Shown: positions 9,001 to 37,534, numbered from the stretch's first letter. The stretch is DNA of 64,000 nucleotides from an uncultured Planctomycetaceae bacterium (GCA_964394665.1 CAYMYN010000005.1:37461-101460); one strand, 5' to 3'. Notes: generated by a model not told the origin, from the letters alone. Translations and numbers: made by a program.

Positions 9001-11084
9001 TGCACCAGGCGCTGAACTTCATGCGCGGCAGCGAGGAAGCGGGCGAGTGGGGCGAGGCCGCCATGACGCCCCGCCGAGCCATCTCGGAGGCCGTGCGCAC
9101 CCGCGTGCGGCCGATCTTCATGAGCACGCTGACCTCGGTCGGCGGCATGGCGCCGCTCGTGCTCATGCCGGGCTCGGGCTCGGAGCTCTACCGCGGCCTG
9201 GGCAGCGTGGTCGTCGGCGGCCTGTTGGTCTCGACGGTCTTCACGCTGCTGCTCGTGCCGTTGCTCTTCTCCCTGGTCACCGACATCCAGCAGCGTCTGG
9301 GCATGCTGCGCGAGACGGACGAGGCCCACCAACGCGAGCTGGCCCGCGCCAAGAGCCCGTCGACGGCACAGGTCGCGACGGTGGTCCTCCTTTTGGCGCT
9401 GCTTCCCGGCTGGCTCGGTTCCTGCTCCAGCCCGCGCGCGTCCGATTCGACCTATGCCCAGCTCGCCCGGAGCGCACAGGAACGCCGTGCGGCCGAGGTC
9501 GCGCGCGCGGCCGAGCCGCACAGGACGGCGCAGAGCGAGTCCGCGCTGGGCGAGGAGCTGCGCGGCCGCATGACCGCGCTCGAGCTGATCGGGGGGCGCG
9601 CCTCGTGGCAGGACCTCGAGCCCGATCTGGGCGAAGACCTGCTCGGCGTGGAGCAGGAGCTCGCCCCGATCACGCTCGAACGCGCGGTCCTGCTCGCCGC
9701 CGAGCACAACCTGGGCCTGCGTTTCGCGCGGCTGCGGCCCCAGATCGCCGCCGAGGGCCTCTCGCGCGAGGACTCCGCCTTCGACCCGGTCTTCTTCGCG
9801 GACCTGGAGTACGAGGACTTCGAGCAACCGCGCACCGTCCCGGTGCTCGGTGGCGTGCAGCTCGGCACACCGCTGAGCGCCGCCGAGCGCGCGCGGGCGC
9901 AGCTCGGCGTGCGCCAACTCCTGCACACGGGCGCGACGGTGCAGGCCTCGACCTTCCTCGAGCGCTACGAGAACCAGACCCCGGGCATCGATTACCTGCC
10001 GGATCCCGCTTGGCGCTCGGGCGTGGCGCTCGACGTGGTGCAACCGTTGCTCTCGGGCGCGGGTCGTTCGTTCACCGACGCGGCGCGCGAGTTGGCGCGC
10101 AGCGAGCAGCGCCGCAGCGAGGAGGAACTGCGCGCCGAGCTCCTGATCGTGGCCGCCTTCGTCGAACAGGCCTTCTGGGACCTGCGCGAGGCCCGCGGTC
10201 GCTTGCAGATCCAGCAGCGCCTGACCCAGCAGGGTGCGGAAGTCGAGCGTGTGCTGCGCGAGCGACGCGGCTTCGACGTGCAGCCCGCCGAGTACGCCGA
10301 CGCACTGGCGACCCTCGAGCAGCGCCGCGCGGATCTCGTGCGTGCCCGGGCCCTGCTGCGCGCGGCCTCGGACCGCCTCAAGTCCTTGCTCGACGCGCCG
10401 GGCGTGGGCCTGGACGCCGAGGACCTGCTGCTCGCCGTGGACGACTTCCACACGGAACCGACCCCGATCGACCTGGGTGAGGCGGTCGCGACCGCCCTGG
10501 AGCGCCGCCCCGAGCTGCGCGCCGCGCTCTCTGCGATCGACGACGCCGACCTGCGCGTCGCGGTCGCGCGCAGCCTGCGTCGGCCGCGCCTGGACCTCGT
10601 CGGACGGGTCGAGGTGCTCGGCGAGGACGACTCCTTCGGCGATGGCTACGGCTCCTTGGCCGAGGACGACCTGCTCAGCTACCTGGTCGCGCTGCGCCTC
10701 GAGGTCCCCTTCGGCAACCGCGGGCCGCGCGCCGATCTGCGCCGGGCCGAGCTCGAGGCGCGGGCCGCTTCGCTGCGCCACGAGCAGGAGATGCGCAACG
10801 TGGTGCTCGAGGTCAAGACGGCCCTGCGCGACCTGGTGACGAGCTACGAGCTGATCGGCGCCGCCCGCTCGTTCCGCATCGCCCAGAGCGAGAACCTGCG
10901 CGAGCTGTTGCTCGAGAAGGAGCGACGCCGCAGCCTGACCCCCGAGTTCCTGCGCCTCGAGTTCGACCGCCAGGATCGCCTGGCCCGCGCTCAGCTCGAT
11001 GAGCTGCAGGCCATCGCCAACTACAACCGCGCCCTGGCCGCCTTCCACCGCGCCACCGGCACGGGCCCCCTGCTCGCCCCGTGA
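6018..11084 (+). CDS. RND efflux permease (AcrB/CzcA-like, ~1095 aa) fused in-frame to a TolC-like outer-membrane factor (~590 aa); one 1688-aa ORF
   Basis: Residues 1-~1090 carry the RND hallmarks (12 TM, two large periplasmic loops, FAVGMVVDNAIVVLENV). After the last TM and a ~30-aa tail, the same frame continues with no stop into MLRETDEAHQRELARAKSPSTAQVATVVLLLALLPGWLGSC (signal peptide with lipobox LGSC) and a coiled/beta TolC-like OMF domain. Confidence 0.8.
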   Translation: MNLVQLAVRQPVTIAVGVILILLAGVVSLRRIPIQLTPNVEDTIIAVTTRWEGASPLEIEREVVDRQEERLQSITNLKSITSESQQDLGTIRLEFNVGTTKEQALREVSDKLREVPRYPENVDEPVIQASDPENRDYIAWIVLRSDDPDFDVRSLQDFVEDRVKPIFERVSGVSEINVLGGNPREVQVRFDPALLASKGITPSRFAQAIQAQNRDVSGGRLAESKADVRVRLVGQFSSVADVENAVVAHSEGGPIYVRDLAEVVETYKEPTGFVRSRGQAVLAINAQREVGANVMAVMAGIRSAIADLNSPGGVLDTQARRLGLEGALRLEQVYDQTIYIDDALALVQNNIWIGGGLAILILLLFLRSLRTAGIIALAIPISVVGAVVAMVGLGRSINVISLAGMAFAVGMVVDNAIVVLENVYRHLELGKNSVRAAIDGGREVFGAVLASTLTTVVVFVPILLVEEEAGQLFRDISLAIVAAVALSLLVSVTVIPTLAARLLKNKDKALAKPRRRGPFARLPEAVANLIYWLNGSWVLRTVVVVILAGASIFGTLKLLPPADYLPQGNRNLIFGLLIPPPSYSLDQRNVLAERIESTVRPYWEAALTEPGSPERASLPEIDVHTPDGQLQRTTVPPAIINYFLVSLTGFMFHGGIAEEPERVADLMPLFAQATRSDVAPGVFSFAFQVPLFRLGGRTGSAIKINFVGENLDEVSSSALAVFMRMMGLYGPGTVQPDPSNFNVPTPEVQLVPDRLRMAEAGLDYEDVAIASRAMGDGAIIGEYRLEGEAIDLKIISKDALLPGALASIGENPIATPSGQVIPLGSVAPPTRVNAAQQINRVGRQRAVSLQFTPPEGMPLERAVSEVSNLLEEMRAAGAIPQDVDTTFTGSASKLAAVQNALLGDKTLIGTLGSSLFLALTVVYLMMCVLFQSFLRPLVIMVSVPLATLGGFAALSAVHAWSVADPYMPIQKLDVLTMLGFVILIGVVVNNAILIVHQALNFMRGSEEAGEWGEAAMTPRRAISEAVRTRVRPIFMSTLTSVGGMAPLVLMPGSGSELYRGLGSVVVGGLLVSTVFTLLLVPLLFSLVTDIQQRLGMLRETDEAHQRELARAKSPSTAQVATVVLLLALLPGWLGSCSSPRASDSTYAQLARSAQERRAAEVARAAEPHRTAQSESALGEELRGRMTALELIGGRASWQDLEPDLGEDLLGVEQELAPITLERAVLLAAEHNLGLRFARLRPQIAAEGLSREDSAFDPVFFADLEYEDFEQPRTVPVLGGVQLGTPLSAAERARAQLGVRQLLHTGATVQASTFLERYENQTPGIDYLPDPAWRSGVALDVVQPLLSGAGRSFTDAARELARSEQRRSEEELRAELLIVAAFVEQAFWDLREARGRLQIQQRLTQQGAEVERVLRERRGFDVQPAEYADALATLEQRRADLVRARALLRAASDRLKSLLDAPGVGLDAEDLLLAVDDFHTEPTPIDLGEAVATALERRPELRAALSAIDDADLRVAVARSLRRPRLDLVGRVEVLGEDDSFGDGYGSLAEDDLLSYLVALRLEVPFGNRGPRADLRRAELEARAASLRHEQEMRNVVLEVKTALRDLVTSYELIGAARSFRIAQSENLRELLLEKERRRSLTPEFLRLEFDRQDRLARAQLDELQAIANYNRALAAFHRATGTGPLLAP
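9303..11084 (+). other. Possible internal start (ATG 9303) for an independently translated OMF lipoprotein within the RND-OMF ORF
   Basis: In-frame ATG followed by an n-region, h-region and lipobox (Cys codon at ~9421-9423). Standard OMF length (~593 aa) if initiated here. Confidence 0.4.
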
Positions 11085-11251
11085 ACGCCCGCGCGGGGCC
11101 GCCGACGGATGGAGCAAGGGAGTCGGGAAAAAGCCAACCGCAACGGCTTCCGCGGCGTTGGCTAGGGTGAACCATCCCCGGGGGCGCTTTGCCCATGGGG
11201 TCCGTGCCCGTCCTCGGGCACCCACGCGGTCCCGATCCCGCCCGTCCTGCG

Positions 11252-14200
11252 ATGATCCGTTCCCCGAAGACTCCGCCCGTCCGGCCCTCGCTCCTCGCCG
11301 CCCTCCTGCTCTGCCTCGCCGGCCCGCTCGGCGCCCAGGGGACTCCGATCGGGTTTGCGGAGACCTTCGCCCTGGCCGCCGACCGCGAGCGGGCCCTCGC
11401 GGAGCTCGTGCCGGGCTCGCCCGAGCACTTCTACTACTCCTGTTTGCACGCCCAGCACCTGGGCGAGCTCGGGCGCGTCGACGGGCTCTTGCGCGCTTGG
11501 CGCGAGCGCCACGGCGACTCGGACCCGCGCCAGGATCGGGTCGCGCTGCGCCAGACGTTGCTGCGCGCCTCCCAGGATCCCCAGGGCTCCTACCGCGACC
11601 TCGTGCGGCGCCTGGGGCTGCGCTTCGATCAACGGCCCGCGCTCGGCGAGACGAACCGCGACCTGCCGACGCGCCTCGACTCGAACGAGTTGACCGACGA
11701 GGTCTGGCTGCGGGACGCCCTGAGCCGGCACCCCCGATCCCTGCGCGGCCTCGAGGACGGAGCCCTGACGCGCATGGCCGCGCGCGACCTCACGGCTGGC
11801 GAGCTGCGCGAGCTCCTCGGGCGCTTGCACCGTCCGGACGTGCCCGGGCTGGCGCGCCTGGTCGTGCGCGAGCTGGGCCTGAACGGCAGCCGCGGCTTCG
11901 GTGCCTTCCCGATCCACGGCCGCTTGCTGTTGGCGCAGCTCGAGGAGTGCCTCTCCCTGCGCCCCGAGCTGCTGGCCGACTCGAACTTCGTGCGCACCTA
12001 CCTCGTGCGCCTCACCCCCGGCGCCGACGACGACCCCCGCGACCCCGCGGTGCGCCTGGCCCACATCGAGCGGCTCGAACGCTTCGCCGCGCGCCTGCCC
12101 GCGGCCTTCGACAGCCTGCGGGCCCACGTCCTGTATCACCGCCTGGATCTCGACCTCGACCTCGACCAGCTCGACGCGGAGCGCCTGCTCGCCTACCTGC
12201 GCGTCGCGCGCCAGGCAGCCTACATCGACCCGGTCCAGCGCGAGCAGCCGGCGGTGAGCCTCTCGGAGAACTGGATGACGGGCCTGGCGCCGATCGCCGC
12301 CGACGAGCCGCTGGTGCGCGAGTACCTGGGCCGGCTGTGCGAGCGCCTCGACTCCTTCCAACGCTTCGTCGGAGTCCTGCGCCGCGACTACGTCCAGCGC
12401 ATCTTCGCCGAGGCCAAGATCCTCTCCGGCGCGCCCGATCCCGAACGTTGGTTCGCGCTGCTCGAGGACCCGCGGGTCGTCGAGGAGCTCAAGCGGCGGG
12501 TGGAGCTGCGCCTGCCGCGCGGCCTGGCGCGCAGCTTCGGCCCCGACGAGCCGGTACGCCTCGCCATCGACGTCAAGAACGTCGACACGCTGCTGGTGAA
12601 GGTCTTCGAGATCGACGCGGCGGCCTTCTACATCGCCCAGGGCGCCGCGCCACGCCTGCGCGAGCTCGACGCGACCCTCGACCTCGACGGCCTGGTGGCG
12701 CACGAGGAGCGCGCCCATCGCTACGAGGAGTCGCCGATGCGCCGCGTGCGGCGCACCTTCGACTTCCCCGAGCTCGACGAGCCGGGCGTCTACGTCGTCG
12801 AGTGGATCGGCAACGGGATCGCCAGCCGAGCCGTGATCCGCAAGGGCACCCTGCGCGTCACCGAGCGCGTCGGCGCGGCCGGCCACGTGCTGCGCGTGGT
12901 GGACGAGCAGGGCCAGCCGGCCGTGGGCGCCAGCCTGCTCTACGCCGGGCGCGAGTACGTCCCCGACGAACGCGGCGAGATCGCGATCCCCTTCAGCACC
13001 GATCCGGGCTTGCGGCACCTGGTGTTGCGGCGCGGCAACCTGGCGGTGCTCGAGGAGTTCGAGCACCTGGCGGAGACCTACGCGCTGGAGGCCCCCGTGC
13101 ACGTCGAGCGCGAAGCGCTGCTCGCCGGCGAGCGCGCCACCCTCGTCGTGCGCCCGCGCCTCCAGGTGGCGGGCCGGCCAATCAGCCTGGCGTTGCTGGA
13201 AGGCGCGCGCTTGGAGCTACGCGCCACGGACCTCGACGGTGTCGTCGCCGCATCGACCGTGCGCAACCTCGAGCTGCGCAACGGCGTCGAGTTCGTGCAC
13301 GAGTTCAACGTACCGCCGCGCACCCAGTCCTTCAGCGTGCAGCTCGCCGGCCGCGTGCGAAGCCTCAGCGAGTCCAAGGACGTCGAGCTCGCCGCGAACG
13401 TGGTCCTGTTCCCGCTCAACGGCATCGACGCCACCGACGAGCTGTGGACGCCGCTCCTGGCGCGCGCCGAGGAAGGCTACTGGCTCGAGGTGCGCGGCAA
13501 GAACGGGGAACTCGGGGCCGGCCGCGTCGTGCAGGTGACGCTCCAGCACCGCGACTACACGACCGCGCGTACGTTCCAGCTCCAGAGCGACGCGCAAGGG
13601 CGGATCGGGCTCGGCCCGCTCGAGCACATCTCGCGCCTCGAGGTGGGCGGGATCGGCGAGCGGCCCGCGGCCTGGTGGCTGGCTGCGCCGACGCCCGGCG
13701 GCCGGCCGCGCAAGCTGCACGCCCTCGAAGGTGAAGCGATCCGGGTTCCCTGGGACGGCGCGGACTCCTTCTCGCTCTTCGAGCTGCGCGGCGGCCAGTT
13801 CGCCTTCGAGCGCAGCGAGCGCGGCGCGAGCTGGGGCGGTAGCTACCTCTCGCTCGGCGACCTCGCGGCCGGCGATTACCGCCTGGAGCTGCACGGGATC
13901 GGCCGCGTGTACGACCTGCGCGTGACGCGCGGGCAGCGGGCAGCGGGCCACGCCTGGGGTGCGGTACGACGGCTCGAGCTCTCCCGGCCGCTCGAGCTCA
14001 CGATCCGAGAGGCTTCGGTGCGCGGGGAGGAGCTCGTCGTGCAACTCGCCGGTGCCGGCCCGGATGCGCGGGTCCACGTCAGCGCCCTGCGCTACGTCCC
14101 CGACGTCGACGGCCATCGCCGTCTGGGCCTGGGCCGTCTGCGGAACCTCGACTGGGACGCGCTCCACGCACCGGAGAACCAGTACGAGTCCGGCCGGCGC

Positions 14201-17200
14201 ATCAGCGACGAGTACCGCTACATCCTCGAGCGCCGCTTCGCCCAGCGCTTCCCGGGCAACATGCTGGCGCGTGCGGGGCTGCTCTTGAACCCCTGGGCGA
14301 TCGACGAGGCGACGTCGGACACGAGCGCTGGCGAGGGGGCGTTCGGTGGACGCTTTGGCGGGCGCCGCAGCTCGCGCCACGGCGGCGGGGTGGGGCCTTC
14401 GACGCGCGAGAGCGACGGGATGCCGGGCGCGCGTCCGGGCTTCGCCAACCTCGACTTCCTGGCCGAGCCCGCGCTCTTCCTCGCGAACCTGCGTCCCGAC
14501 GAGCAGGGTTTCGTGCGCCTGCCCCTCGAGCGTCTGGGGGATCGACACCTGGTGCAGGTCGTGGCCGTGGACGGGCACACCACCGTCTCGCGCAACGTCC
14601 TGCGCCCGGCCGCGGCGCCCAAGCTCCGGGATCGGCGCCTGGCCATGTCCCTCGATCCCCAGACGCACCTGGTGGAGGACCGCCGCATCGAGTTCCTCGA
14701 CGCCGGCGCAGCGTCGACCTTCACCGACGCGACGAACGCAGGGGTCGAGGTCTACGACGACCTGGGCGACGTCTACCGCTACTTCCTCACCCACGGCGGC
14801 GCGCCCGAGCTGGAGCGCTTCGAGTTCCTCGTGCGCTGGCCGTCCCTGAGCGCGGAAGAACGCCTCGCGCGCTACTCCGAGTTCGCCGGCCACGAGCTGC
14901 ACGTCTTCCTGCGCCGCAAGGACCCCGAGTTCTTCGAGCGCATCGTGCGCCCCTACCTCGCCCACAAGGCCCACAAGACCTTCCTGGACCATTGGCTCCT
15001 GGGCGCGGACCTCAACGGCTATCTCGAGCCCTGGGCCTTCGCCGAGCTGAACACCTTCGAGCGCATCCTGCTCCTGCGCGAGCTCGAGGGCGGACCGGCG
15101 CGGCACGTGCGCGAGCTGGTCGAGCTCCTGCCGCCGGAGACGTTCGCGTTGCGCACGTACTTCGATCGCCTGCTGGCGGGGAGAGCATTGGACTCGGATC
15201 GGACCCAGCTCGGGTTGTTGCTCGAGGAACGCGCCCGGGCGGAGGAAGAGGCGAAGGTCGCCCTGGTGCAGAAGGCTCCGGCCCCGGGGACGCCTTCGAC
15301 CAGCGCCGCGAGCCGCGCGCGGCGGGAACTCGGGGACGCGCCGATGGAAGGGGCGGTCGAGGAGCAGGCGGAGCTCGACCAGGCCCTCCGGGACCTGGGT
15401 TACGTCTCGGACGAGGTCTCCGACAAGGACCTGGAGCGCCGCCAGGCCCAGCGACCCTTCTTTCAAGACCTGGCCGACACCCGCGAGTTGGCCGAGCGCC
15501 ATTACTGGCGCGTGCTCCGCTCGGCCATGGACGCGGGGCTCGTCACGCCGACACCCTTCTGGCTCGATTTCGCGGAATCGGCCCCGGGCCAGGCCTTCGT
15601 CTCGAGCCGCTTCCCCCTCGCCGCTGGCAATCTGCCCGAGATGTTGCTGGCCTTGGCGCTGCTCGACCTGCCCTTCGTGGCCGAGGCGCACACATCCCAG
15701 GCCAGCCCCGAAGGGGTGGTCTTCACCGCCGGCTCGCGGCTCTTCCTGGCGCGGCGCGGCATGAAGCCGGTCGAGGCGGCGCCCGACGCGCGGCCGATCC
15801 TGGTCGGCCAGGATTTCTTCCGCCTCGACGATCCCTTCGTGTTCGAGCGGGGTCGCCAACGCGACAAGTTCGTCAGCGGCGAGTTCCTCGTCGGCGTGCC
15901 CTACGGCTGCCGCGTGGTGGTCACGAACCCCACCTCCACCCCGGTCGACGTCGAGGTCCTGCTCCAGATCCCCGAGGGCGCCCTGCCCGTACGGCGCGGC
16001 TTCGTGACCCGCGGGCGGAGCGTGACCCTGCCCGGCTACGGCAGCGCATCCATCGAGTACGGCTTCTACTTCCCCGCCGCCGGCACGTTCCGCCACTACC
16101 CGGCGCACGTTGGCGAGGACGGCGCGTTGCTCGCGTTCGCGACCCCCGCAGCGATCCAAGTCCTCGCCGCCCCCAAGGAGCTCGACCGCACCTCTTGGGA
16201 GCATCTCTCCCAGGCCGCTGAGCTCGAAGAACTGCTGGAGCATCTCGAGCGCGAGAACTTGGCCCGCGTCGACCTCTCGCGCCTCGCCTGGCGCATGCGT
16301 GAACGGGGCGCCTACGAGCGCATCCTGACCCTCTTGCGGCGCCACACGACCTTCGACCCGACCCTGTGGTCCTTCGGCCTGCACCACGGCGACGCGCGCA
16401 CGGCCCGCGAGTTCCTCGAGCGCCGCGCCGACCTCGTCGGCGCCGCCGGTCCTTGGTTGCGCTCCGAGCTGCTCACCATCGAGCCCGTCGAGCGAGGCAT
16501 CTACGAGCACCTCGAGTACGACCCGCTGGTCAACGCTCGCGCGCACCGCTTTGGCCAGGAGCGGCGCATCTACAACGAAAGCTTCGCGCGGCAGTACGGC
16601 CGTTTCCTCGAGGTCCTGGCCCACAAGCCTGCCCTCGACGACCTGGACCGCATGGCCCTGGTGCACTACCTGCTCCTGCAGGAGCGCATCGGCGAGGCCC
16701 TCGAGCACTTCGCGCTCATCGATCCCGCGGGCATCGAGGCGCGATTGCAGTACGACTACCTGGCGGCGTACCTCGCCTTCTACTCGCCCGAGCCCGGCGC
16801 CGCGCGCGCCATCGCCGCGCAGTACGCCGAGCATACCGTCCCGCGTTGGCGGGCGCGCTTCGGTGCCGTGCTGGCCCAGCTCGACGAGGCGGAGGGTCGC
16901 GGTCCGGCCGGGGCCAGCGATCCCGAGAGCCGCGACGAGCGCCAGGGCGCCCTGGCCGCCGCCACGGCGGTGCTCGAACTCGCCGTCGAGGCGCGCCGGG
17001 TCACCTTGAGCTACTCGAACCTCGGGCAGGCCGAGATCCGTTACCGGCCGATGAACATCGAGCTGCTCTTCTCGACCAGCCCCTTCCTGCAAGCCGGATC
17101 GGGCGCCTTCGCGGCGGTTCAGCCCCACCGCGTCGATCGGGTCGAGCTGCCCGCCGATCGCGACACGCTGGTCCTCGACCTACCGAAGGAGTTCGCCTCC

Positions 17201-17539
17201 GCGAACGTGCTGGTCGAGGTGCGCGGCGGCGGCCTGGTGCGCACCCAGGCCTACTACGCCCACGACCTGCGCGTGGAAGCCCGCGAGGCCTACGGGCAAC
17301 TCTCCGTGCGCCGCGCTTCCGACGGCGCCCCATTGCCCGCCACCTACGTCAAGGTCTACGCGCGCCTCTCCGACGGCCGCATCCGCTTCCACAAGGACGG
17401 CTACACCGACCTGCGCGGCCGCTTCGACTACGTCTCGGTCTCCGGCCTCGACGCCGCCCCGATCCAGCGCTTCGCCGTGCTGGTCCTGAGCGAGGAGAGC
17501 GGCGCCCTGGTCCGCGAACTCGACCCGCCCCGGCGCTGA
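11252..17539 (+). CDS. Very large secreted protein (2095 aa), function unknown
   Basis: ATG 11252 gives MIRSPKTPPVRPSLLAALLLCLAGPLGAQG (signal peptide). The 6.3-kb frame is uninterrupted, with balanced composition (aromatics, hydrophobic cores) and a helical-repeat-like N-terminal third. No thioester or other recognisable catalytic motif seen. The longer annotated start 11189 is less likely. Confidence 0.7.
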   Translation: MIRSPKTPPVRPSLLAALLLCLAGPLGAQGTPIGFAETFALAADRERALAELVPGSPEHFYYSCLHAQHLGELGRVDGLLRAWRERHGDSDPRQDRVALRQTLLRASQDPQGSYRDLVRRLGLRFDQRPALGETNRDLPTRLDSNELTDEVWLRDALSRHPRSLRGLEDGALTRMAARDLTAGELRELLGRLHRPDVPGLARLVVRELGLNGSRGFGAFPIHGRLLLAQLEECLSLRPELLADSNFVRTYLVRLTPGADDDPRDPAVRLAHIERLERFAARLPAAFDSLRAHVLYHRLDLDLDLDQLDAERLLAYLRVARQAAYIDPVQREQPAVSLSENWMTGLAPIAADEPLVREYLGRLCERLDSFQRFVGVLRRDYVQRIFAEAKILSGAPDPERWFALLEDPRVVEELKRRVELRLPRGLARSFGPDEPVRLAIDVKNVDTLLVKVFEIDAAAFYIAQGAAPRLRELDATLDLDGLVAHEERAHRYEESPMRRVRRTFDFPELDEPGVYVVEWIGNGIASRAVIRKGTLRVTERVGAAGHVLRVVDEQGQPAVGASLLYAGREYVPDERGEIAIPFSTDPGLRHLVLRRGNLAVLEEFEHLAETYALEAPVHVEREALLAGERATLVVRPRLQVAGRPISLALLEGARLELRATDLDGVVAASTVRNLELRNGVEFVHEFNVPPRTQSFSVQLAGRVRSLSESKDVELAANVVLFPLNGIDATDELWTPLLARAEEGYWLEVRGKNGELGAGRVVQVTLQHRDYTTARTFQLQSDAQGRIGLGPLEHISRLEVGGIGERPAAWWLAAPTPGGRPRKLHALEGEAIRVPWDGADSFSLFELRGGQFAFERSERGASWGGSYLSLGDLAAGDYRLELHGIGRVYDLRVTRGQRAAGHAWGAVRRLELSRPLELTIREASVRGEELVVQLAGAGPDARVHVSALRYVPDVDGHRRLGLGRLRNLDWDALHAPENQYESGRRISDEYRYILERRFAQRFPGNMLARAGLLLNPWAIDEATSDTSAGEGAFGGRFGGRRSSRHGGGVGPSTRESDGMPGARPGFANLDFLAEPALFLANLRPDEQGFVRLPLERLGDRHLVQVVAVDGHTTVSRNVLRPAAAPKLRDRRLAMSLDPQTHLVEDRRIEFLDAGAASTFTDATNAGVEVYDDLGDVYRYFLTHGGAPELERFEFLVRWPSLSAEERLARYSEFAGHELHVFLRRKDPEFFERIVRPYLAHKAHKTFLDHWLLGADLNGYLEPWAFAELNTFERILLLRELEGGPARHVRELVELLPPETFALRTYFDRLLAGRALDSDRTQLGLLLEERARAEEEAKVALVQKAPAPGTPSTSAASRARRELGDAPMEGAVEEQAELDQALRDLGYVSDEVSDKDLERRQAQRPFFQDLADTRELAERHYWRVLRSAMDAGLVTPTPFWLDFAESAPGQAFVSSRFPLAAGNLPEMLLALALLDLPFVAEAHTSQASPEGVVFTAGSRLFLARRGMKPVEAAPDARPILVGQDFFRLDDPFVFERGRQRDKFVSGEFLVGVPYGCRVVVTNPTSTPVDVEVLLQIPEGALPVRRGFVTRGRSVTLPGYGSASIEYGFYFPAAGTFRHYPAHVGEDGALLAFATPAAIQVLAAPKELDRTSWEHLSQAAELEELLEHLERENLARVDLSRLAWRMRERGAYERILTLLRRHTTFDPTLWSFGLHHGDARTAREFLERRADLVGAAGPWLRSELLTIEPVERGIYEHLEYDPLVNARAHRFGQERRIYNESFARQYGRFLEVLAHKPALDDLDRMALVHYLLLQERIGEALEHFALIDPAGIEARLQYDYLAAYLAFYSPEPGAARAIAAQYAEHTVPRWRARFGAVLAQLDEAEGRGPAGASDPESRDERQGALAAATAVLELAVEARRVTLSYSNLGQAEIRYRPMNIELLFSTSPFLQAGSGAFAAVQPHRVDRVELPADRDTLVLDLPKEFASANVLVEVRGGGLVRTQAYYAHDLRVEAREAYGQLSVRRASDGAPLPATYVKVYARLSDGRIRFHKDGYTDLRGRFDYVSVSGLDAAPIQRFAVLVLSEESGALVRELDPPRR

Positions 17540-17815: not shown

Positions 17816-18385
17816 ATGTTTGCAATCCACTCGTCGTCCGTTGCCCGTCCGGTGGAGGCTGGGGTTTCGACGCGCCGCGCGGTCCATGGAGCGGCGTCGG
17901 GGCAGGAGTGCGCGGCGCCGGTCGTGTGGACGCCAGTGGCTTCAGGGCCCGGGACTCTCGGGGGATCCCGGGTCGAGCGGCTTCGCCAGCGGCGGCGTCC
18001 GACGCGCTCCGCGCGGTGGATGGGAGTGCTCCTGGGCCTCGTGCTCGCCGTGGGGTTGGCGCAGAGCGTCTTCGGGCTGCTCGTTTCGGCGAGTTCCTCG
18101 ACCTGGGAGGTCTACGACTCGGACGGCAACTACTCGGGCCTGCTGGTGGCCAAGCGCGAGGAGGGGCAGGACTGGCAGTGGACCTACTACGAGACGAACT
18201 CCGATCCGCCGCCGCAGCACGTCGAGGCCGGGTCGGGGACGGCCAGCGGGGGGCCTGTCCAATACACCTGGACCTCCAGCCACGGGGACTCGGGTACGGT
18301 CACCGCCTCGGATACGGACCCTGACAAAGCCACATGGACGAACGAAACGGCGGGCACGGGGGGGACCCTGCGCAGGCTCCAGTGA
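17816..18385 (+). CDS. Small single-pass membrane protein (alternative start ATG 18020 would give a ~121-aa secreted or anchored protein)
   Basis: GGAGAGG ribosome-binding site 5 nt upstream of ATG 17816. Hydrophobic segment MGVLLGLVLAVGLAQSVFGLLV, then a Ser/Thr/Gly/Trp/Tyr-rich ~95-aa domain. The stop TGA overlaps the next gene's GTG (GTGA at 18382-18385). Confidence 0.45.
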   Translation: MFAIHSSSVARPVEAGVSTRRAVHGAASGQECAAPVVWTPVASGPGTLGGSRVERLRQRRRPTRSARWMGVLLGLVLAVGLAQSVFGLLVSASSSTWEVYDSDGNYSGLLVAKREEGQDWQWTYYETNSDPPPQHVEAGSGTASGGPVQYTWTSSHGDSGTVTASDTDPDKATWTNETAGTGGTLRRLQ

Positions 18386-20502
18386 GGCGCGGGCACGGTT
18401 GGGTCCTGTTCCTGGGCCTGCTCCTCGCGGCGACGATCGGGTGGGGCGTGTCGCGCTCGGAGCGCGGAGACGGTCCGCCTCCGCTCGCCGGCCGACCGGG
18501 TCCGCCCGGCGAGGAACCGTCCGCGCTGGAAGCCGCGGTCGCGGGTCAGCGCATCACGCGCCCCAGCGCACCCGCCTTGCTCGGTCCGTTGCCGATTCGG
18601 AGTGAGGGATTCGTCGACCTCCTCGTGCTGGGATTGCCCGAGGCGCTGCGCGAGCTGGAAGCCCAGGTCCAGCGCCCGCACCCCGAACGGCCCCAGCGGC
18701 ATCTACCTGGGCCGCGCGTGACCTTGGACGTTCGCGAAGGGCGGGCTGCGGGGCGCGTCGTCGTACCCGCCGGCGAACGGATCCACTTCGTGCTCTCCGG
18801 GCGCGGCGTGCGCGCCGTGACGGAGCGCGAGCCGCTCGAGGTGCCGGAGGGCGCCGTGCGCGCGTTCACGGTCGATCTGTCGGCCCTCTGCACGGTGCGG
18901 GGTCGGGTGGTCGACGTGCCCGGAGCGGGGGGGCGCACGGTCACCTTGCGTTACGCGCGGCGCGTGGGCGACGTGGGAGTCCTGCCGCCCCATCCCATCC
19001 CGATGCATCTCGAGACGCGCCTCGACGCGGGGGGCGAGTTCGTCTTCGGCGGCGTTCCGCGCGGCACCTTCGTGCTGGAGCTGCGCACGGCGCGCGGCGA
19101 GGTGCCCCTGGTCGAATGGCCGGCAGGAGACCCATCCCAGCGGGCCGCCTGGATCGCCTGCGAAGCGGCCTGGATCGAAGTCCGGCCGAACGATCCCTTG
19201 GTGGGTCTCGCGCCGGTCGACGGGCGCGGAGATCCGCTCGTGGGCGAGCCCTTCGCCGTGATCGCGAACGCGGGCACGGCTTCCGACGCGTTCGTCCATC
19301 CGAACGGCATCGCGTTGGTGCGCCTGGCGGAAGTGGCCGATCCCATTCGCCTTGGCCTCTTCCTACCGCGGCGCGGCGTCTACCTGCGGGATCCGTCCGC
19401 GCCCGCGCCCGTCGCGGGGGAGCGCCTCGAGATCGTGGTGGGCGAGGGGAACGCGCCCGCGGGCAGCATCCGCGTGGTCAGTGCTGGGCCACTCGACGGA
19501 GGCTTGATCGTGGACTTCGAGCGCCACGGGCCCGGCGGACCGGAACGCCTGCTCGGCCTGCAGGTGCTGCACCTGCGCCGCGGCGAAGGAGCGCTGCGGA
19601 TGGAGCGCCTACCCGACGGAGCGCGGCTGCACGGGCTGCCGGCGGGCACCTATGACCTCGCCTGGTCGTGGGGCGGAAGACGTCCCTTCGCCCAGGGCGT
19701 GGTGGTGGAGGTCGGCGGCGAAACGCTCGTCGAGGTCGACGCGCCGCGCCTGCGGGAGATCGAGATCCAAGTGGCGGAGTGGGACGGGATCCCCGAGCCC
19801 CTGCGGCCGATCGAAGTCTGGAACGAGGGCGTTTCGGCGCCGATCCGCGCGGGGCGCGCGCTCCTGCGGGTGGCCGAGCCCGTCGCCCGCGAAGTGTGGA
19901 TCCGGGGCCGACACGACTTCTGGTGGCCCCAACCGCAACGCTTGCTCCCCGAGGGCGAGGTGTATCGCCTGGAGTTGTCCTACGGACACTTCGTGCAGGT
20001 GCCGCTCGACGTCGAGCCGCTGCTCGGCGGCCGCATCGTGGCCGAGATCGACCAGGACCCGCGCCGCGCAGAGCTCGTCGAGGGCCGCGGCGCCCCGCGC
20101 TGGGTGCAGCCGCAGGCCGACGGGCGCCCGTTGCTCGTCTTCGAGCCCGACGATCCGCCCGCGGGCCGCGTGTTGGAGTTCGGCCAGGGCTTCAAGCTCC
20201 TGCGCGGTTGGTTCGACCTCGCCGCCGCAGCGCCGGTCTCCGTGGGGACCTTCTCCGGCCATTGGTGCGACGTCTCGTTCGAGGCCGGGGGGAGCTTCGT
20301 CGAGGTGTACCTCGAGGGACCCACCCGCAGCGACCAGGCCGCGGCGCGCACGAAGGTCGCGACCCTCGACTCCAGCCTCCCGGCGCGCATCTGGGTGCCC
20401 GACGGAGCGCGAACGCTCCTGGCGCGCGACCCGCTTGGGAACGAGGCCCGCGTCGAGCTCACCGGTGCTCCGGCGTTGCTCGAGATCGACCTCTGGCGCT
20501 GA
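18382..20502 (+). CDS. Membrane-anchored protein with carboxypeptidase-regulatory-like beta-sandwich repeats (anti-sigma-like paralog)
   Basis: GTG 18382 (4-nt overlap with the upstream stop) gives VRRGHGWVLFLGLLLAATIGWGV (TM). Repeats of type TVTLRYAR...GGEFVFGGVPRGTFVLEL. Similar style to the C-terminal parts of the ECF fusion proteins. Confidence 0.6.
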   Translation: MRRGHGWVLFLGLLLAATIGWGVSRSERGDGPPPLAGRPGPPGEEPSALEAAVAGQRITRPSAPALLGPLPIRSEGFVDLLVLGLPEALRELEAQVQRPHPERPQRHLPGPRVTLDVREGRAAGRVVVPAGERIHFVLSGRGVRAVTEREPLEVPEGAVRAFTVDLSALCTVRGRVVDVPGAGGRTVTLRYARRVGDVGVLPPHPIPMHLETRLDAGGEFVFGGVPRGTFVLELRTARGEVPLVEWPAGDPSQRAAWIACEAAWIEVRPNDPLVGLAPVDGRGDPLVGEPFAVIANAGTASDAFVHPNGIALVRLAEVADPIRLGLFLPRRGVYLRDPSAPAPVAGERLEIVVGEGNAPAGSIRVVSAGPLDGGLIVDFERHGPGGPERLLGLQVLHLRRGEGALRMERLPDGARLHGLPAGTYDLAWSWGGRRPFAQGVVVEVGGETLVEVDAPRLREIEIQVAEWDGIPEPLRPIEVWNEGVSAPIRAGRALLRVAEPVAREVWIRGRHDFWWPQPQRLLPEGEVYRLELSYGHFVQVPLDVEPLLGGRIVAEIDQDPRRAELVEGRGAPRWVQPQADGRPLLVFEPDDPPAGRVLEFGQGFKLLRGWFDLAAAAPVSVGTFSGHWCDVSFEAGGSFVEVYLEGPTRSDQAAARTKVATLDSSLPARIWVPDGARTLLARDPLGNEARVELTGAPALLEIDLWR

Positions 20503-20630
20503 CCACCCTGGGTGCCTGCGACGGCCCCCAGGGCCACGGGTTCGACGTGCCCCGGCGCCCAGAGCCCGGCGGACGCCCACGCGCGCCGGATCGGGAACGA
20601 TCGGGCGTGCGCGGTGTTGAATGGGGTGCC

Positions 20631-23600
20631 GTGCAGACACCCGGGGCATCGATCGAGGAGTTGCTGGGCCACGCCGACTTCGTGCGGCGGTTGGCGCGCG
20701 AGCTCGTCGGGGAGGAGACGGGGGCCGAGGATCTCGCGCAGGAGGTCTGGTTGGCGGCCCTGCGGCGGCCGCCGGGGGGAGGGGAACGGTTGCGTGGGTG
20801 GCTGGCGGTCACGGCGCGCAACCTGCTCGCCAACCGCCGGCGCGAGCAGGGTCGACGGGGCGCGCGGGAACGGGACGCGGCGCGCGAGGAGTCGGTGCCT
20901 TCGGCCGAGTCCGTGCTCGAGCGCGAGGAACTCCGCGCCCAGGTCGTGCGAGCCGTGCTCGCCCTCGATGCGCCCCTGCGCGAGGTCTTGCTGCTGCGCT
21001 ACTACGAAGGGCTCGCGCCGCGCGAGGTGGCGCGGCGGCTCGGGGTGCCGGCGGCGACGGTGCGCACGCGCCTGCACCGTGGGTTGCAGCGCTTGCGCGC
21101 CGGGTTGGACGAGCGGAACGGTGGGCGGAGCTGGGCGGTGTTGCTCGCGCCGTGGACGCGGGTGCCGTCTGGGGCGGCTTGGATCCTGGGAGGGATCGCC
21201 ATGAAGAAGATGCTCGCGGCCATCGCGCTGCTCGGGATCGGACTCGTCGCCTGGCGCCTGTCGGGCGGGGAGGCGGAGGTCGAGCCGCGGCCTCCCTCGT
21301 CCGTCGTGGGGCCGAGCGCGGAACGCGCACCGCGGACGGACGGGGAGCCGGCCCCCCAGGAGATCACGGGAGAGCGCGCCGGGGAGATCACTGAGGCCCG
21401 CACGTCGCTCGCCCAAGAGGGCCCGGGAGCGACGGTCGGTCGACGCGTGTTCCCCGCCGACCGTGGGCGCGGCGCGGTGTGGGGCGAGGTCGTGGACGCG
21501 CAGGACCGGCCGCTCGCCGGGGTGCGCGTACGCGGCGCTCCGCACCTTGGGAACCTGCCGCCGGGGCTCGTGATCGACGACGATCGGCGCGCGGTGGTCG
21601 AAGCGCGCAGCGGGATCGACGGCCGGTTCCGCCTGGAGGACCTCGAGGAGGGGCCGGTCCTCGTCGAGGCGCGCTTCGAGGACGGTGGGCGCGCCGCGCG
21701 CGTGGTCGTGCTGGCGCGCGACGGCGAGCAGGGTCCGGTTCGGCTCTCGCCGCCCCACCCCGAGGCCGCGCGCGGGCGCATGACCGTGCGCGTCGTGGAC
21801 GGCGCGGGCGAGGCCGTGGCAGGAGCCCGGGTCGAGGTGTTCGGCTGGTCGCGCCAAAACGTCGAGCCGGACGTGATCGGGACCGCGGACAGGGTGCCGC
21901 TGGCGCGCGGCGACACGGACGGGGAGGGCCGCTTCGGGGCCGAGCTCCCGGGGCTCGAGTCGGGCGTCGCCTTCGCCTCCGGGCCGGACGGGTCTTGCGG
22001 CAGGAGCCGCTTCACCGGCCTCCACGGCGAAGCCTCGGCCCTGGTCGTCGTGCTGGAACCGCCGGCGAGTTTGGTGGGCGAGCTCGTCGGAGCGCGCGCC
22101 GAGGACCTCGTCGGCGCGACGCTCGCGCTGCACGCGCTGGTGGACCTCAACGCCTACTTCTCCTATGCGGGACGGCGCTTCGAGATCGAGCTCAGCGGGC
22201 CGCGGTTCGAGTTCCACGGGCTCCCCGCGGGCACGTTCGGCATCACCCTACGCGCACCGGAGAGTCTGCGCCTGGTCGTCGGTCGCACGCGGGCCGGCGA
22301 GTTCGAGTTCGAGAACTCGGTGGCGATGCCCGAGGTCGTGCTCGTGCCCGGCGAGACGGCCGCGATCGAGCTGCCGGTGGCGCTCGGCGCGCGCCTGGTC
22401 GGCCGCGTGCGGGCCGCGGGCCGGCCGGTGCCCGGCGCGCGGGTCCGCGCTGTGATCGCGCCCCGCACGAGCTTCCACCCGGCCGGGTTCGTGCTCCACG
22501 GCGTCCACGTCTGGCGCCTGGACAGCGCCTACGAGAACGGCCCGCACAACCCGCTCTCGCACGTCACGGGCACGAGCGATGCGCAGGGACGCTACGAACT
22601 CGCCGGACTGCAACCGGGGAGGTATCGCCTCGAAGTCGTGGCGGACGGCCTCTCGCTGGATCGGCGCATGGACCTCGAGCTGAGCGCCGGTGCTTCGCTC
22701 CAGCTCGAACACGACCTGGTCGAGGCCGGCGTGTTGCAGGTCGCGGCCCTCGGTCTCGGGTACCTGGGTCTGATCCCGCAGGGGAGCTCGGCGCCGGAGA
22801 TCCTCGCCATCGTCCGCGACGACTTCGCGACGATCCCGGGATTGCGGCCCGGCCTGTGGAGCGTGGCGCGCTTCCACTCGAACGAGAGTGTCGCTCCGGT
22901 GATCCTGGGCGAGGCGTGGATCGAGGCCGGGCGCACGACCTGGCTCGACCTGCGCGAGAGCAGCGTGCGCGCCCACATCCGCGGCATCGTGCTGGACGGG
23001 GACATGCCCGTCCCGAACGCGGGCGTCCGGATCGGGGCCACCACGGCGCGCACGGACGACGCGGGGTCGTTCCATCTCCAGCTCGGGCACCCACCGCGTT
23101 TCGGGACGGGTTTTGGCGCCAGCATCGAGATTCGCCAGGGCGGCACCGAGTACACCTTCGTGCCCGACGCGCAGGGGCCGGTCGAGCGATTGGACCTGAT
23201 GCTGGATCTGGGGCCCTACCGGGTGCCGATCGAACTCGTCGACGCGACCGGGAGTCGATTGGAAGGTCGAATCGAGTTCCAGCTCGAGGCGGCCGAGCCG
23301 CGCGGGAGCGAGCCCCGTTCGCTGCGCGGCAGCCTGCTCGCGGGTGCCTCGGAGCCCACGTTCGTCGGTCCGCTCCCGGCGGGGACGCTCGTCGGGCGCG
23401 CGGTGCTGGCGGACGGCCTCGTCCTGCCCTTCGAGGCGAGCGTGCCCCGCGATCGACTGGTGCACCTGCAACGCCCGGCGACGGGCACCCTGGAGGTCCA
23501 GGTCCAGCGCGCGGGTGTCCCCGTGGGCGGTGCGCGGGTCTCGGCCTGGGTCTGGCGCGGAGAGGGTGAACCGCCCGACGATGCGTCGGAGTTCGTTGCG

Positions 23601-23771
23601 ACCAGCGATTCCGCCCACGGTCGCACGGACTCCGACGGTCGCCTGCACCTCGTGCTGCGCTCCGGCGCGATCCTGGTCTCGGCCCACCACGGTTTCCTCG
23701 CACCGGCCACGAGCTCCCGCGTGTCGCTCGGCGTCGATGGGCTGGAGCAGATCGTGCTCGAGCTCGAGTGA
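20631..23771 (+). CDS. ECF sigma factor fused to a TM segment and ~800-aa extracytoplasmic carboxypeptidase-regulatory-like repeat region (single-chain sigma/anti-sigma-like protein)
   Basis: Sigma-70 region 2 (DLAQEVWLAALRRP) and region 4 (LLLRYYEGLAPREVARRLGVPAATVRTRLHRGLQRL). Then, with no stop, MKKMLAAIALLGIGLVAWRL (TM) and repeats such as GVRVRGAPH / GRYELAGLQPGRYRLEV. Probable GTG start at 20631 (alt. 20607). The N-terminus aligns with the paralog at 33491-36544. Confidence 0.7.
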   Translation: MQTPGASIEELLGHADFVRRLARELVGEETGAEDLAQEVWLAALRRPPGGGERLRGWLAVTARNLLANRRREQGRRGARERDAAREESVPSAESVLEREELRAQVVRAVLALDAPLREVLLLRYYEGLAPREVARRLGVPAATVRTRLHRGLQRLRAGLDERNGGRSWAVLLAPWTRVPSGAAWILGGIAMKKMLAAIALLGIGLVAWRLSGGEAEVEPRPPSSVVGPSAERAPRTDGEPAPQEITGERAGEITEARTSLAQEGPGATVGRRVFPADRGRGAVWGEVVDAQDRPLAGVRVRGAPHLGNLPPGLVIDDDRRAVVEARSGIDGRFRLEDLEEGPVLVEARFEDGGRAARVVVLARDGEQGPVRLSPPHPEAARGRMTVRVVDGAGEAVAGARVEVFGWSRQNVEPDVIGTADRVPLARGDTDGEGRFGAELPGLESGVAFASGPDGSCGRSRFTGLHGEASALVVVLEPPASLVGELVGARAEDLVGATLALHALVDLNAYFSYAGRRFEIELSGPRFEFHGLPAGTFGITLRAPESLRLVVGRTRAGEFEFENSVAMPEVVLVPGETAAIELPVALGARLVGRVRAAGRPVPGARVRAVIAPRTSFHPAGFVLHGVHVWRLDSAYENGPHNPLSHVTGTSDAQGRYELAGLQPGRYRLEVVADGLSLDRRMDLELSAGASLQLEHDLVEAGVLQVAALGLGYLGLIPQGSSAPEILAIVRDDFATIPGLRPGLWSVARFHSNESVAPVILGEAWIEAGRTTWLDLRESSVRAHIRGIVLDGDMPVPNAGVRIGATTARTDDAGSFHLQLGHPPRFGTGFGASIEIRQGGTEYTFVPDAQGPVERLDLMLDLGPYRVPIELVDATGSRLEGRIEFQLEAAEPRGSEPRSLRGSLLAGASEPTFVGPLPAGTLVGRAVLADGLVLPFEASVPRDRLVHLQRPATGTLEVQVQRAGVPVGGARVSAWVWRGEGEPPDDASEFVATSDSAHGRTDSDGRLHLVLRSGAILVSAHHGFLAPATSSRVSLGVDGLEQIVLELE

Positions 23772-26639: not shown

Positions 26640-27233
26640 ATGGGACTTCGGGCGATGGAACCGGCACGCGACGACACCGACCTGGTCGAGGCCACCCTGG
26701 CCGGCGACCAGGACGCCTTTCGGCGCCTGGTCGAGCGCTATCAGGACCGCCTCTTCGCCCTGGCCCGGAACTACACCCGCAGCGCGGTCGAGATCGAGGA
26801 CATCGTCCAGGACGCCTTCCTGAAGGCCTTCCGGCGCCTGGACACCTTCAACCACGAGTCCTCCTTCTACACCTGGCTGTATCGGATCACGCTGAACACG
26901 GCCCTCGACTTCCTCAAGCGCCGCAGCCGGTCGCCGGTCCACGCGGTCGAAGACCCCGAGCTGGGCGCTCCGCCCTCCCCCCAGGAGGGCTTCGCGCCCC
27001 AGGCGCGCCTCGAACGCGAGGAGATCGCCACGATCACGCGCGCGGCCCTCGACGAGCTGCCGGAGATCTTCCGCACGGTGCTCGTGATGCGCGAGTTCGA
27101 AGGCCGCGCCTACCAGGAGATCGCCGACGTGCTCGGCATCTCGATCGGCACGGTCGAGTCGCGCCTCTTCCGCGCCCGCGCCCGCTTCAAGGACCGCATC
27201 CTGGCCCGCTTCCCCGAGTACGGACAGGCGTAG
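26640..27233 (+). CDS. ECF sigma factor (RpoE / sigma-24-like)
   Basis: Region 2 (LVERYQDRLFALARNYTRSAVEIEDIVQDAFLKAFRRL) and region 4 (LVMREFEGRAYQEIADVLGISIGTVESRLFRAR). Confidence 0.85.
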   Translation: MGLRAMEPARDDTDLVEATLAGDQDAFRRLVERYQDRLFALARNYTRSAVEIEDIVQDAFLKAFRRLDTFNHESSFYTWLYRITLNTALDFLKRRSRSPVHAVEDPELGAPPSPQEGFAPQARLEREEIATITRAALDELPEIFRTVLVMREFEGRAYQEIADVLGISIGTVESRLFRARARFKDRILARFPEYGQA

Positions 27234-27248
27234 TCCGCCGAGTCGATC

Positions 27249-27773
27249 ATGAACACCACCTGCAAACCCTTCGCGCCCCTGATCCCGGCCTACCTCGATG
27301 GCGAGCTGAGCGACGCCCAGGCCGGGCCCCTGCGGCGCCACCTGCTCGAGTGCCCGGCCTGTCGGCGCGAGGTCGCGGGTGAGAAGGCGCTCAAGCGCTG
27401 GTTCGTGGCCGAGCCGGTCCCGGCGGTGCCGGTCGGATTCGCCGACCGCGTCGCGCGCCGGGCCTTCGCGGGCGACCCGGGCCTCGAAGCCAGCGCGCCG
27501 AGGAGCGCCGACGAGGGACGGATCCTGCCCTTCGTGCTCACGCTGACCGCCGCGGCGGCGGCCTTGCTGCTCATCGTCGCCGGCTCGATCCACGGCCTGA
27601 TCGTGCCCGCGGGCGGGACCCTGGGCGCCGAGGACGACGTGCCGATGAAGCTGGAGCAGGTCCTGGGCGAGCTCGAGCGCCTGGAGCGCGCCGAAGCCTC
27701 CGGCGCGGGCGTGAAGGACGCGGCCGAGGAACGCTCCGAGCCGACCCGACCCCGCGGGACCCCCGGCCGGTGA
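27249..27773 (+). CDS. Zinc-finger (ZAS-type) transmembrane anti-sigma factor
   Basis: HLLECPAC (H-x3-C-x2-C) motif, central TM (ILPFVLTLTAAAAALLLIVAG). Immediately downstream of the ECF sigma gene. Confidence 0.7.
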   Translation: MNTTCKPFAPLIPAYLDGELSDAQAGPLRRHLLECPACRREVAGEKALKRWFVAEPVPAVPVGFADRVARRAFAGDPGLEASAPRSADEGRILPFVLTLTAAAAALLLIVAGSIHGLIVPAGGTLGAEDDVPMKLEQVLGELERLERAEASGAGVKDAAEERSEPTRPRGTPGR

Positions 27774-37442: not shown

Positions 37443-37534
37443 GGGTACAGGATAGGCGCCGCGAGCGGCTGGAGCTCCCCGCTGGCGCGACCTGCGAGGC
37501 CCTCGGGACCCGGAGGCGAGGTAGCATCGGGGAG

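Follow-up and report, generated by a model that had tools for sequence, protein, structure and literature searches.

A fused ECF sigma factor with a transmembrane helix and a predicted extracytoplasmic beta-sandwich array in an uncultured planctomycete

Introduction

Sigma factors with extracytoplasmic function (ECF) are regarded as the third main way in which bacteria transduce signals, and Planctomycetota encode dozens of them per genome. Within a 64,000-nucleotide stretch of DNA from an uncultured Planctomycetaceae bacterium (GCA_964394665.1, CAYMYN010000005.1:37461-101460; ~72% G+C; hereafter the window, meaning the whole stretch), one gene, copy 1, joins such a sigma factor in frame to a membrane-spanning helix and a long region predicted to lie outside the cytoplasm; a second gene, copy 2, follows the same plan:

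20631-23771, plus strand: copy 1, fused ECF sigma factor, transmembrane helix and beta-sandwich region (open reading frame, Pfam and NCBIfam matches, third-position G+C content, homologs, AlphaFold2 model)
33491-36544, minus strand: copy 2, the same fusion, 1017 residues (open reading frame, Pfam, NCBIfam, hydropathy)

The locus raises the question of how a sigma factor tied to the membrane by its own polypeptide might be silenced and put to use, and hence (i) whether the fusion is genuine; (ii) whether its N-terminal part is likely to act as a sigma factor; and (iii) which mode of control best fits the protein. We conclude that the fusion is genuine, and we give about an even chance (a probability of roughly 0.5) to the reading that each gene encodes a one-polypeptide transmembrane signalling device, composed of an ECF sigma factor, a tie of ~25 residues, a helix, a flexible linker and a rigid stalk of ~8 domains.

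The fusion is encoded by one continuous gene

Copy 1 is a single uninterrupted open reading frame (ORF) of 1046 residues on the plus strand, extending from a GTG start codon at 20631 to a stop codon at 23769-23771. The G+C content at third codon positions (GC3) of this frame stays at 0.8-0.98 without a break from ~20600 to 23771, with no frame shift at the junction between the sigma and transmembrane (TM) parts, while upstream of ~20570 the same frame has a non-coding composition. The coordinates and content given by an original prediction, which had been made from the DNA sequence alone and had described a single polypeptide in which an ECF sigma factor is followed by a TM segment and then by beta-sandwich repeats outside the cytoplasm (~800 residues in that reading, ~835 here), therefore stand.

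As the residues AMKK directly ahead of the helix look like the start of a signal-anchored protein, we considered whether a stop codon between a sigma factor gene and a downstream membrane-protein gene had been lost through an assembly or sequencing error. This explanation is refuted. GC3 runs on in one frame, no stop codon lies between sigma region 4 and the helix, and, as the original prediction had argued, an independent, diverged copy of the same plan is present at 33491-36544. A search of ~5.8 billion proteins yielded 251 matches, and the same architecture recurs in all 120 of those listed: each has sigma region 2 and/or region 4, and all but one also have the PF13620 domain. Since some of these listed homologs are found on contigs of 3.4, 6.6 and 8.1 Mb, a junction stop codon or an assembly error can be excluded. 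A conserved internal start at Met191, yielding a separate membrane protein, was likewise rejected, as this methionine is found in just 43 of 122 sequences.

Domain organization of copy 1

An AlphaFold2 (AF2) model of copy 1, built on 60 sequences (mean pLDDT 88, pTM 0.73), was combined with profile searches and a hydropathy scan to delimit the following features:

20652-20882, plus strand: sigma region 2, residues 8-84 (Pfam; AF2 helices over residues 8-84, pLDDT ~90)
20904-21119, plus strand: sigma region 4, residues 92-163 (Pfam Sigma70_r4_2 and r4 over cut-offs; AF2 pLDDT >90)
21120-21173, plus strand: cytoplasmic tether, residues 164-181 (family motif; AF2 confidence low to medium)
21174-21263, plus strand: TM helix, residues 182-211, core 194-211 (Kyte-Doolittle scan; AF2 helix 182-211)
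21264-21431, plus strand: disordered juxtamembrane linker rich in Pro, Ala, Gly, Ser and Glu, residues 212-267 (AF2 pLDDT <50 for residues 211-267)
21432-23768, plus strand: extracytoplasmic array of ~8 CarboxypepD_reg/transthyretin-like beta-sandwich domains, residues 268-1046 (Pfam PF13620, AF2, Foldseek)

The domains named by the original prediction all exceeded their Pfam cut-offs: Sigma70_r2 at residues 14-76 (41.8 bits, cut-off 24), Sigma70_r4_2 at residues 104-155 (49 bits, cut-off 25.7) and CarboxypepD_reg, PF13620 (90.2 bits, cut-off 32.3, E 1.1e-25). Furthermore, the general ECF model of NCBIfam, TIGR02937, scored 80.2 bits (cut-off 42.9). Neither Pfam nor NCBIfam gave a match to sigma region 1 or region 3 in copy 1 or copy 2, and none of the planctomycete ECF subfamilies of NCBIfam reached its cut-off in copy 1 (TIGR02984, 47.5 against 183.75; TIGR02989, 51.7 against 124.55). 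By these profiles, both copies have the domain content of ECF (group 4) sigma-70 factors, and both carry PF13620 repeats and a beta-sandwich region.

Sigma regions 2 and 4 are joined by a short, flexible linker in the AF2 model. The nearest ECF sigma factors of solved structure are SigE and SigL of Mycobacterium tuberculosis (2e-14 and 2e-13 over residues 10-161 in a sequence search), which Foldseek also retrieved with a probability of 1.0 at 28-32% identity, and these structures are RNA polymerase (RNAP) initiation complexes. Unlike copy 1, SigE and SigL are soluble proteins of ~180-260 residues that have separate anti-sigma factors. The region-2 motifs DAEDLxQExWLAAL and WLxxVxRN are kept family-wide, and the sigma motifs that bind RNAP and DNA are strongly conserved both across 122 family members and in a sample of 51 relatives (described below), indicating selection for sigma function. 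From this conservation and the similarity to SigE and SigL, we infer that the sigma domain probably binds core RNAP and directs transcription.

From the end of sigma region 4, near residue 160, to the start of the helix, near residue 182, there are only about 25 residues. This tether has a family-wide motif, GG-x-(A)W-xx-(A)L-x-P-(L)A, in which W168 is kept in 115 of the 122 sequences; it is followed by ~10 variable residues, a glycine, a Lys/Lys pair, the helix and a tryptophan at the outer end of the helix. The AF2 model places two tiny helices at residues 168-176. An anti-sigma domain needs roughly 60-80 residues and therefore cannot fit into the tether. Consistent with this, no anti-sigma Pfam family (zf-HC2, RskA or FecR) was matched in copy 1 or copy 2, and none is among the 25 Pfam families most often matched in the 51 relatives, which had been sampled irrespective of their extension. 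The original prediction had called the downstream part typical of separate anti-sigma factors, and on this point we disagree: besides lacking these domains, it does not resemble the canonical anti-sigma factor encoded in the window (27249-27773), which is a short zf-HC2 protein without such repeats.

Copy 1 has a single hydrophobic stretch on the Kyte-Doolittle scale (residues ~182-212, nucleotides ~21174-21266), with two lysines ahead of it and the conserved W208 near its end. One TM helix, starting between residues 176 and 246, is found in 120 of 122 family members, and the mean net charge flanking it is +1.07 before and -0.09 after the helix. The predicted topology, with the N-terminus inside and the C-terminus outside, as the original prediction had assumed, fits this positive-inside bias. 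The 50 residues following the helix are enriched in Pro, Ala, Gly, Ser and Glu across the family (fraction 0.59 against a background of 0.43), and the disordered linker (residues 212-267) is a candidate region for site-1 cleavage.

Residues 270-1046 are all-beta and modelled with pLDDT >90. The strand pattern, together with the repeating family motif GxVxDxxGxPxxGAxV...TDxxGxF, indicates ~8 beta-sandwich domains; the array also draws DUF4198-like Pfam matches. A Foldseek search against the PDB returned generic tandem beta-sandwich proteins (Gram-positive pilins, SdrD, alpha-2-macroglobulin and the teneurin TTR domain) with low TM-scores, and no specific functional or enzyme fold was found in the extension.

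A large, mainly planctomycetal family

The 120 listed homologs are 626 to 1477 residues long. Those that are named are nearly all annotated as 'sigma-70 family RNA polymerase sigma factor' from metagenome-assembled genomes (MAGs) of Planctomycetota, the exceptions being one Kofleriaceae MAG and one unclassified bacterium. Nineteen are full-length copy-1 orthologs with 33-72% identity, the best match being that at 72%.

The first 215 residues of copy 1 (sigma factor, tether and helix) were also searched against 1.84 billion representatives of clusters at 50% identity, and 2,471 representatives matched at E<=1e-30; 123 of the best 150 are at least 600 residues long. From these matches we sampled the 51 relatives mentioned above, 49 of which contain CarboxypepD_reg, so that this sigma clade is tightly coupled to its type of extension. 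Coupling between sigma clade and extension has also been described for other extension-bearing ECF groups by Casas-Pastor et al. (PMC7826278). In four relatives of ~245 residues (P0197, P0206, P0218 and P0256), only a short tail follows the sigma factor, tether and TM helix; these proteins may be fragments resulting from contig ends or frameshifts, or else genuine minimal forms made up of a sigma factor and an anchor.

The two copies are old paralogs

Copy 2 has sigma region 2 at residues 15-76, region 4 at residues 105-158, a TM helix at about residues 203-221 and CarboxypepD_reg in five stretches (148.7 bits, cut-off 32.3). The two copies are 47% identical over residues 4-202 of copy 1, with 48-57% identity in the sigma regions, but their arrays are only ~17% identical and the extensions essentially unalignable. 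Orthologs of copy 1, by comparison, retain 47-88% identity in sigma region 2, 57-89% in region 4, 30-72% in the beta array, 36-72% in the extension and 2-34% in the juxtamembrane linker. Copy 2 has orthologs of its own, one at 61% identity (P0021) and three at ~35% (P0085, P0094 and P0072). The separate sets of orthologs and the divergence of the extensions identify the two copies as old paralogs, and the extension of each is under its own constraint, as would be expected of distinct sensor modules. Conserved sigma cores combined with unrelated extensions have been reported for planctomycetal ECFs by Pinto and da Fonseca (PMC7671368).

Each gene is preceded by a predicted, group-specific ECF-type promoter

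Across the two orthologous groups, the motifs GGAAC-N15/16-GTGTTGAATGGGG and AACG-N13/14-GGCATGG end 12-20 nt ahead of the start codon. Both genes are preceded by a predicted promoter that is shared with their orthologs:

20594-20626, plus strand: predicted ECF-type promoter of copy 1 (motif conserved in orthologs)
36561-36585, minus strand: predicted ECF-type promoter of copy 2, AACG, N14, GGCATGG, ending 16 nt before the ATG (shared with orthologs)

The copy-1 promoter comprises a -35 element GGAAC (20594-20598), a gap of 14 nt, a -10 region GGTGTT (20613-20618) and a conserved GAATGGGG (20619-20626); written out, it is GGAACG-N13-GGTGTTGAATGGGG. The motif was found in the same register upstream of six of six orthologs examined (L073-L078), in flanking DNA that is otherwise unalignable, and the consensus of the group is GGAAC-N15/16-GTGTTGAATGGGG, with GGAAC-N15/16-GTGTT present at all seven loci of this group. 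The strict pattern has one match in the window where 0.03 are expected, and the loose form, GGAAC-N14-19-GTGTT, has two where 0.12 are expected. Read as GGAAC-N17-GTT, the motif resembles the GGAAC...GTT promoters of the SigE/SigL branch and the promoters of the SigE/SigH branch. No sigma-70-type promoter was predicted in the 128-bp gap upstream of copy 1.

The copy-2 group has a different motif, AACG-N13/14-GGCATGG(G/A)A, which is present at four of four loci (copy 2, L079, L080 and L081) and ends 13-16 nt before the start codon; the pattern has two matches in the window where 0.23 are expected, the second of them intragenic. Both motifs contain AAC in the -35 element, a hallmark of ECF promoters (PMC8103513). 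As each gene is fronted by a conserved, group-specific promoter of this type, there is good evidence, drawn from comparison of sequences, that the fused sigma domains work as sigma factors and activate their own genes, and that the paralogs differ in -10 specificity.

The second loose match, GGAAC-N18-GTGTT at 21115-21142 on the plus strand, lies at the junction of sigma region 4 and the helix, ~60 nt upstream of Met191. It is probably due to chance: it differs in spacing from the real promoters, and none of the orthologs has it, not even the one with 72% identity. A GC-rich hairpin (CCCTGGG...CCCAGGG; 20506-20533, plus strand) lies right after the stop codon of the upstream gene and ahead of the copy-1 promoter; a T-tract is lacking, and the z-score for its folding is just -2.07.

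Relation to known fused and membrane-controlled sigma factors

Fusions of a sigma factor to its own membrane-spanning extension have been described before, namely IutY, the groups ECF48, ECF52 (including SCO4117) and ECF53, and the extension-bearing planctomycetal ECFs (PMC8999054, PMC5826349, PMC7671368, PMC7826278). The novelty implied by the original prediction was therefore overstated, all the more so as thousands of members of the present family already stand in databases under the label of sigma-70 family proteins.

IutY of Pseudomonas putida (ECF243) is a sigma/anti-sigma hybrid from which proteolysis by Prc and then RseP frees the sigma domain (PMC8999054). Like copy 1, it is a single polypeptide in which an ECF sigma factor at the N-terminus is followed by one TM segment and, at the C-terminus, by a periplasmic part; however, IutY contains a FecR-type anti-sigma domain and works in iron signalling with a TonB-dependent transducer, whereas copy 1 has no anti-sigma or FecR domain and no adjacent receptor, and its periplasmic part is a beta-sandwich array of ~780 residues. 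ECF52, represented by SCO4117 of Streptomyces coelicolor, shares with copy 1 the order of sigma factor, TM segment, Pro-rich linker and an outside, beta-rich binding module, and proposals for ECF52, ECF48 and ECF53 include positive autoregulation and excision by proteolysis (PMC5826349, PMC8999054). Unlike copy 1, with its ~25-residue tether and its named homologs from Planctomycetota and a few Myxococcota, ECF52 is confined to Actinobacteria and carries a zf-HC2 anti-sigma domain between sigma region 4 and the membrane. As copy 1 has neither a FecR nor a zf-HC2 domain, it is not of the IutY, ECF48, ECF52 or ECF53 type.

ECF57, or 'ECF01-Gob', comes from the same phylum and likewise has several paralogs per genome, a conserved sigma core and long, divergent extensions (PMC7671368, PMC7826278). 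It has been described as containing WD40-like repeats and two conserved cysteines that link sigma regions 2 and 4 (PMC8999054). The family gave no WD40 match, the extension being CarboxypepD_reg in both copies and in 49 of the 51 relatives; no conserved cysteine column exists across the 122 sequences, and residues 1-180 of copy 1 contain no cysteine. On these sequence features the fused family does not match ECF57 as described there.

A full-text literature search combining ECF with 'carboxypeptidase regulatory' returned no paper on such a combination, and we found no experimental work on the extension-bearing planctomycetal ECF types in the same literature. The concept of a sigma factor fused to its own transmembrane sensor being known, the value of the present family is incremental: it is a variant without an anti-sigma domain and with a beta-sandwich array. 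It stands apart in that an anti-sigma domain is missing altogether, the array is uniform, the clade is large and the self-promoters are cleanly specific to each group.

A working model for control, and its rivals

We regard release of a membrane-sequestered sigma factor, by a cut in the linker and then a cut within the membrane, as the best-supported working model, with odds that we again put near even. According to this model, the anchored sigma factor would be held from productive use by sequestration at the membrane until a cue from the periplasm or envelope, acting on the beta-sandwich array, makes the disordered linker accessible to a site-1 protease. What is left of the protein would then become a substrate of a site-2 intramembrane protease of the RseP type, and the freed sigma domain (~20 kDa) would bind core RNAP and transcribe from GGAAC-N17-GTT-type promoters, among them its own, creating positive feedback. 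Paralogs that share the sigma/TM module and differ strongly in their extensions and -10 motifs could thereby form separate input-output channels.

The model has precedents. For pro-sigma-K of Bacillus subtilis, the sigma factor itself is the substrate of a site-2 protease, although there a short N-terminal pro-peptide is involved rather than a C-terminal TM helix and sensor. The canonical RseA pathway likewise combines a membrane-held sigma activity with a site-1 cut outside and a site-2 cut (RseP/S2P) inside the membrane, but the protein that is cut is a separate anti-sigma factor (PMC8103513). IutY, processed by Prc and then RseP, is the fused precedent (PMC8999054), and the same release model has been put forward for SCO4117/ECF52, a protein of closely similar layout (PMC5826349). 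The regulated proteolysis or membrane sequestration invoked by the original prediction thus holds as the natural mechanistic reading; proteolytic release is our extrapolation, and no feature of the sequence shows it.

Several observations weigh against release. The extension of the characterised fused sigma factors holds an anti-sigma domain that is absent from copy 1 and copy 2, so that tethering alone has yet to be demonstrated to inactivate any ECF sigma factor. The window holds no protease gene, with no site-2 protease among its annotated ORFs, and no evident protease cleavage site, and the array offers no hint of a ligand in the Foldseek comparison with the PDB. Moreover, the window contains no further intergenic copy of either promoter motif, and the GTG start codon of copy 1 lies only ~12 nt past the predicted -10 element; with the promoter ending 4 nt before this codon, the leader would be very short.

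The sigma factor might instead work while anchored, recruiting RNAP to membrane-proximal DNA in the manner of ToxR, CadC or TcpP, with the array modulating it by conformation or oligomerization rather than through cleavage. There is no anti-sigma domain to keep the sigma factor inactive, the strong conservation of the tether motif (W168 in 115 of 122) hints that the tether does something more specific than spacing, ECF41 and ECF42 show that an ECF sigma factor can function while carrying a large C-terminal domain (PMC7826278, PMC8999054), and planctomycetal ECFs have been recovered from membrane/detergent fractions (PMC8567305). However, no membrane-tethered sigma factor has been demonstrated to act in this way, with a tether of 25 residues the promoter DNA and the 400-kDa polymerase would be forced up to the membrane, and IutY, the sole experimentally dissected fused ECF, requires proteolytic release (PMC8999054); we consider anchored activity unlikely. 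It is similarly doubtful that the anchor and extension receive no signal at all, control being exerted mainly through transcription and turnover of the protein, while the stalk serves the envelope or a structural purpose (for example, as a spacer in the periplasm) and the sigma domain is shed constitutively or at turnover. The extension does consist solely of generic transthyretin-like domains, with analogues in pilins, in the beta-sandwich domains of EMC7 and NOMO and in macroglobulins; the conserved promoter suggests strong transcriptional control; and relatives with apparently only the sigma factor and TM helix (~245 residues) exist. Those short forms may be mere contig-end fragments, however, and the orthologs are 36-43% identical over ~780 extension residues where the paralogs reach ~17%, a pattern expected of input-specific sensors. 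The sigma clade and the extension type are also tightly coupled (CarboxypepD_reg in 49 of 51).

Far less probable than either is that the N-terminal module is a PhyR-like sigma mimic that has lost binding to RNAP and titrates another regulator. Weak PhyR_sigma2 matches (E=0.076 in copy 1; 5 of the 51 relatives) are outweighed by both sigma regions exceeding the Pfam and TIGR02937 cut-offs, by the group-specific ECF-type promoters directly upstream and by the lack of a receiver domain and of a NepR-like partner nearby.

Set beside the release model, a more novel proposition is that membrane-wired ECFs without an anti-sigma domain either act anchored, with RNAP recruited to the membrane and the stalk serving as an envelope ruler or mechanosensor, or are turned off by tethering alone, with the sigma factor itself as the obligatory substrate of the intramembrane protease. 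We hold this only tentatively and would not expect it to be correct; if true, it would be a mode so far undemonstrated for any sigma factor, extending over a clade of at least ~2,400 clusters at 50% identity. Regardless of the outcome, the family is a compact test case, consisting of one protein with no anti-sigma domain, no partner gene and its own predicted promoter, in which to ask whether membrane tethering alone silences a sigma factor and whether intramembrane proteolysis can act directly on a sigma factor. Synthetic biology could also draw orthogonal pairs of sensor and promoter from the shared sigma/TM module, given the very different extensions and the -10 motifs specific to each paralog.

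Genomic context and other genes of the window

Around nine orthologs, the neighbouring genes have nothing in common with those of the window or among themselves, except that the nearest relative keeps the upstream gene for a protein of ~2,100 residues next to its copy-1 ortholog. No anti-sigma, protease, receptor, partner or target gene was consistently found beside the orthologs in these nine neighbourhoods, and this lack of conservation suggests that no trans-acting partner is encoded nearby. At one ortholog locus (L078), a second fused paralog adjoins the first.

The conserved upstream gene (11171-17539, plus strand) encodes a protein of 2122 residues that carries a signal peptide and matches no Pfam family; its homolog in the nearest relative (L073, 1599-7889) is 89% identical and lies directly upstream of the copy-1 ortholog. 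It is a possible target gene. Directly upstream of copy 1, a gene at 18334-20502 (plus strand) encodes a 722-residue protein with an N-terminal TM helix, a beta-rich body and a weak CarboxypepD_reg match; its first residues, MDERNGG, resemble LDERNGG at the junction in copy 1. A six-frame search with the family profile revealed no degenerate sigma domain upstream of this gene, and phmmer found no similarity between the 722-residue protein and the family.

The organism also uses the classical sigma/anti-sigma arrangement, as a canonical pair is encoded on the plus strand, consisting of an ECF sigma factor (26640-27233) and a 174-residue zf-HC2 (ZAS) anti-sigma factor (27249-27773). Directly after a Sigma70_ECF sigma factor (PF07638; 50884-51507, plus strand) comes a fusion of a Ser/Thr kinase with an FGE-sulfatase domain (51510-54131, plus strand), which is the kinase-linked ECF arrangement known from Planctomycetes. 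With the fused, the zf-HC2-paired and the kinase-linked ECFs, the 64-kb window therefore contains three modes of ECF control.

Just upstream of copy 2 and on the same strand lies a nitroreductase gene (36705-37442, minus strand), which is divergent to a gene for a Ser/Thr protein kinase of ~1000 residues (37424-40504, plus strand). Finally, an uninterrupted ORF of high GC3 at 5661-11084 (plus strand; 1807 residues) encodes an RND pump of the AcrB type (PF00873) joined to an outer-membrane factor of the TolC/OEP type (PF02321, residues 1607-1800). A lipoprotein-like signal (...LLPGWLGSCSS...) is present at about residue 1240. As the two parts are not separated by a stop codon, the ORF is either a real fusion or the product of a lost stop codon.

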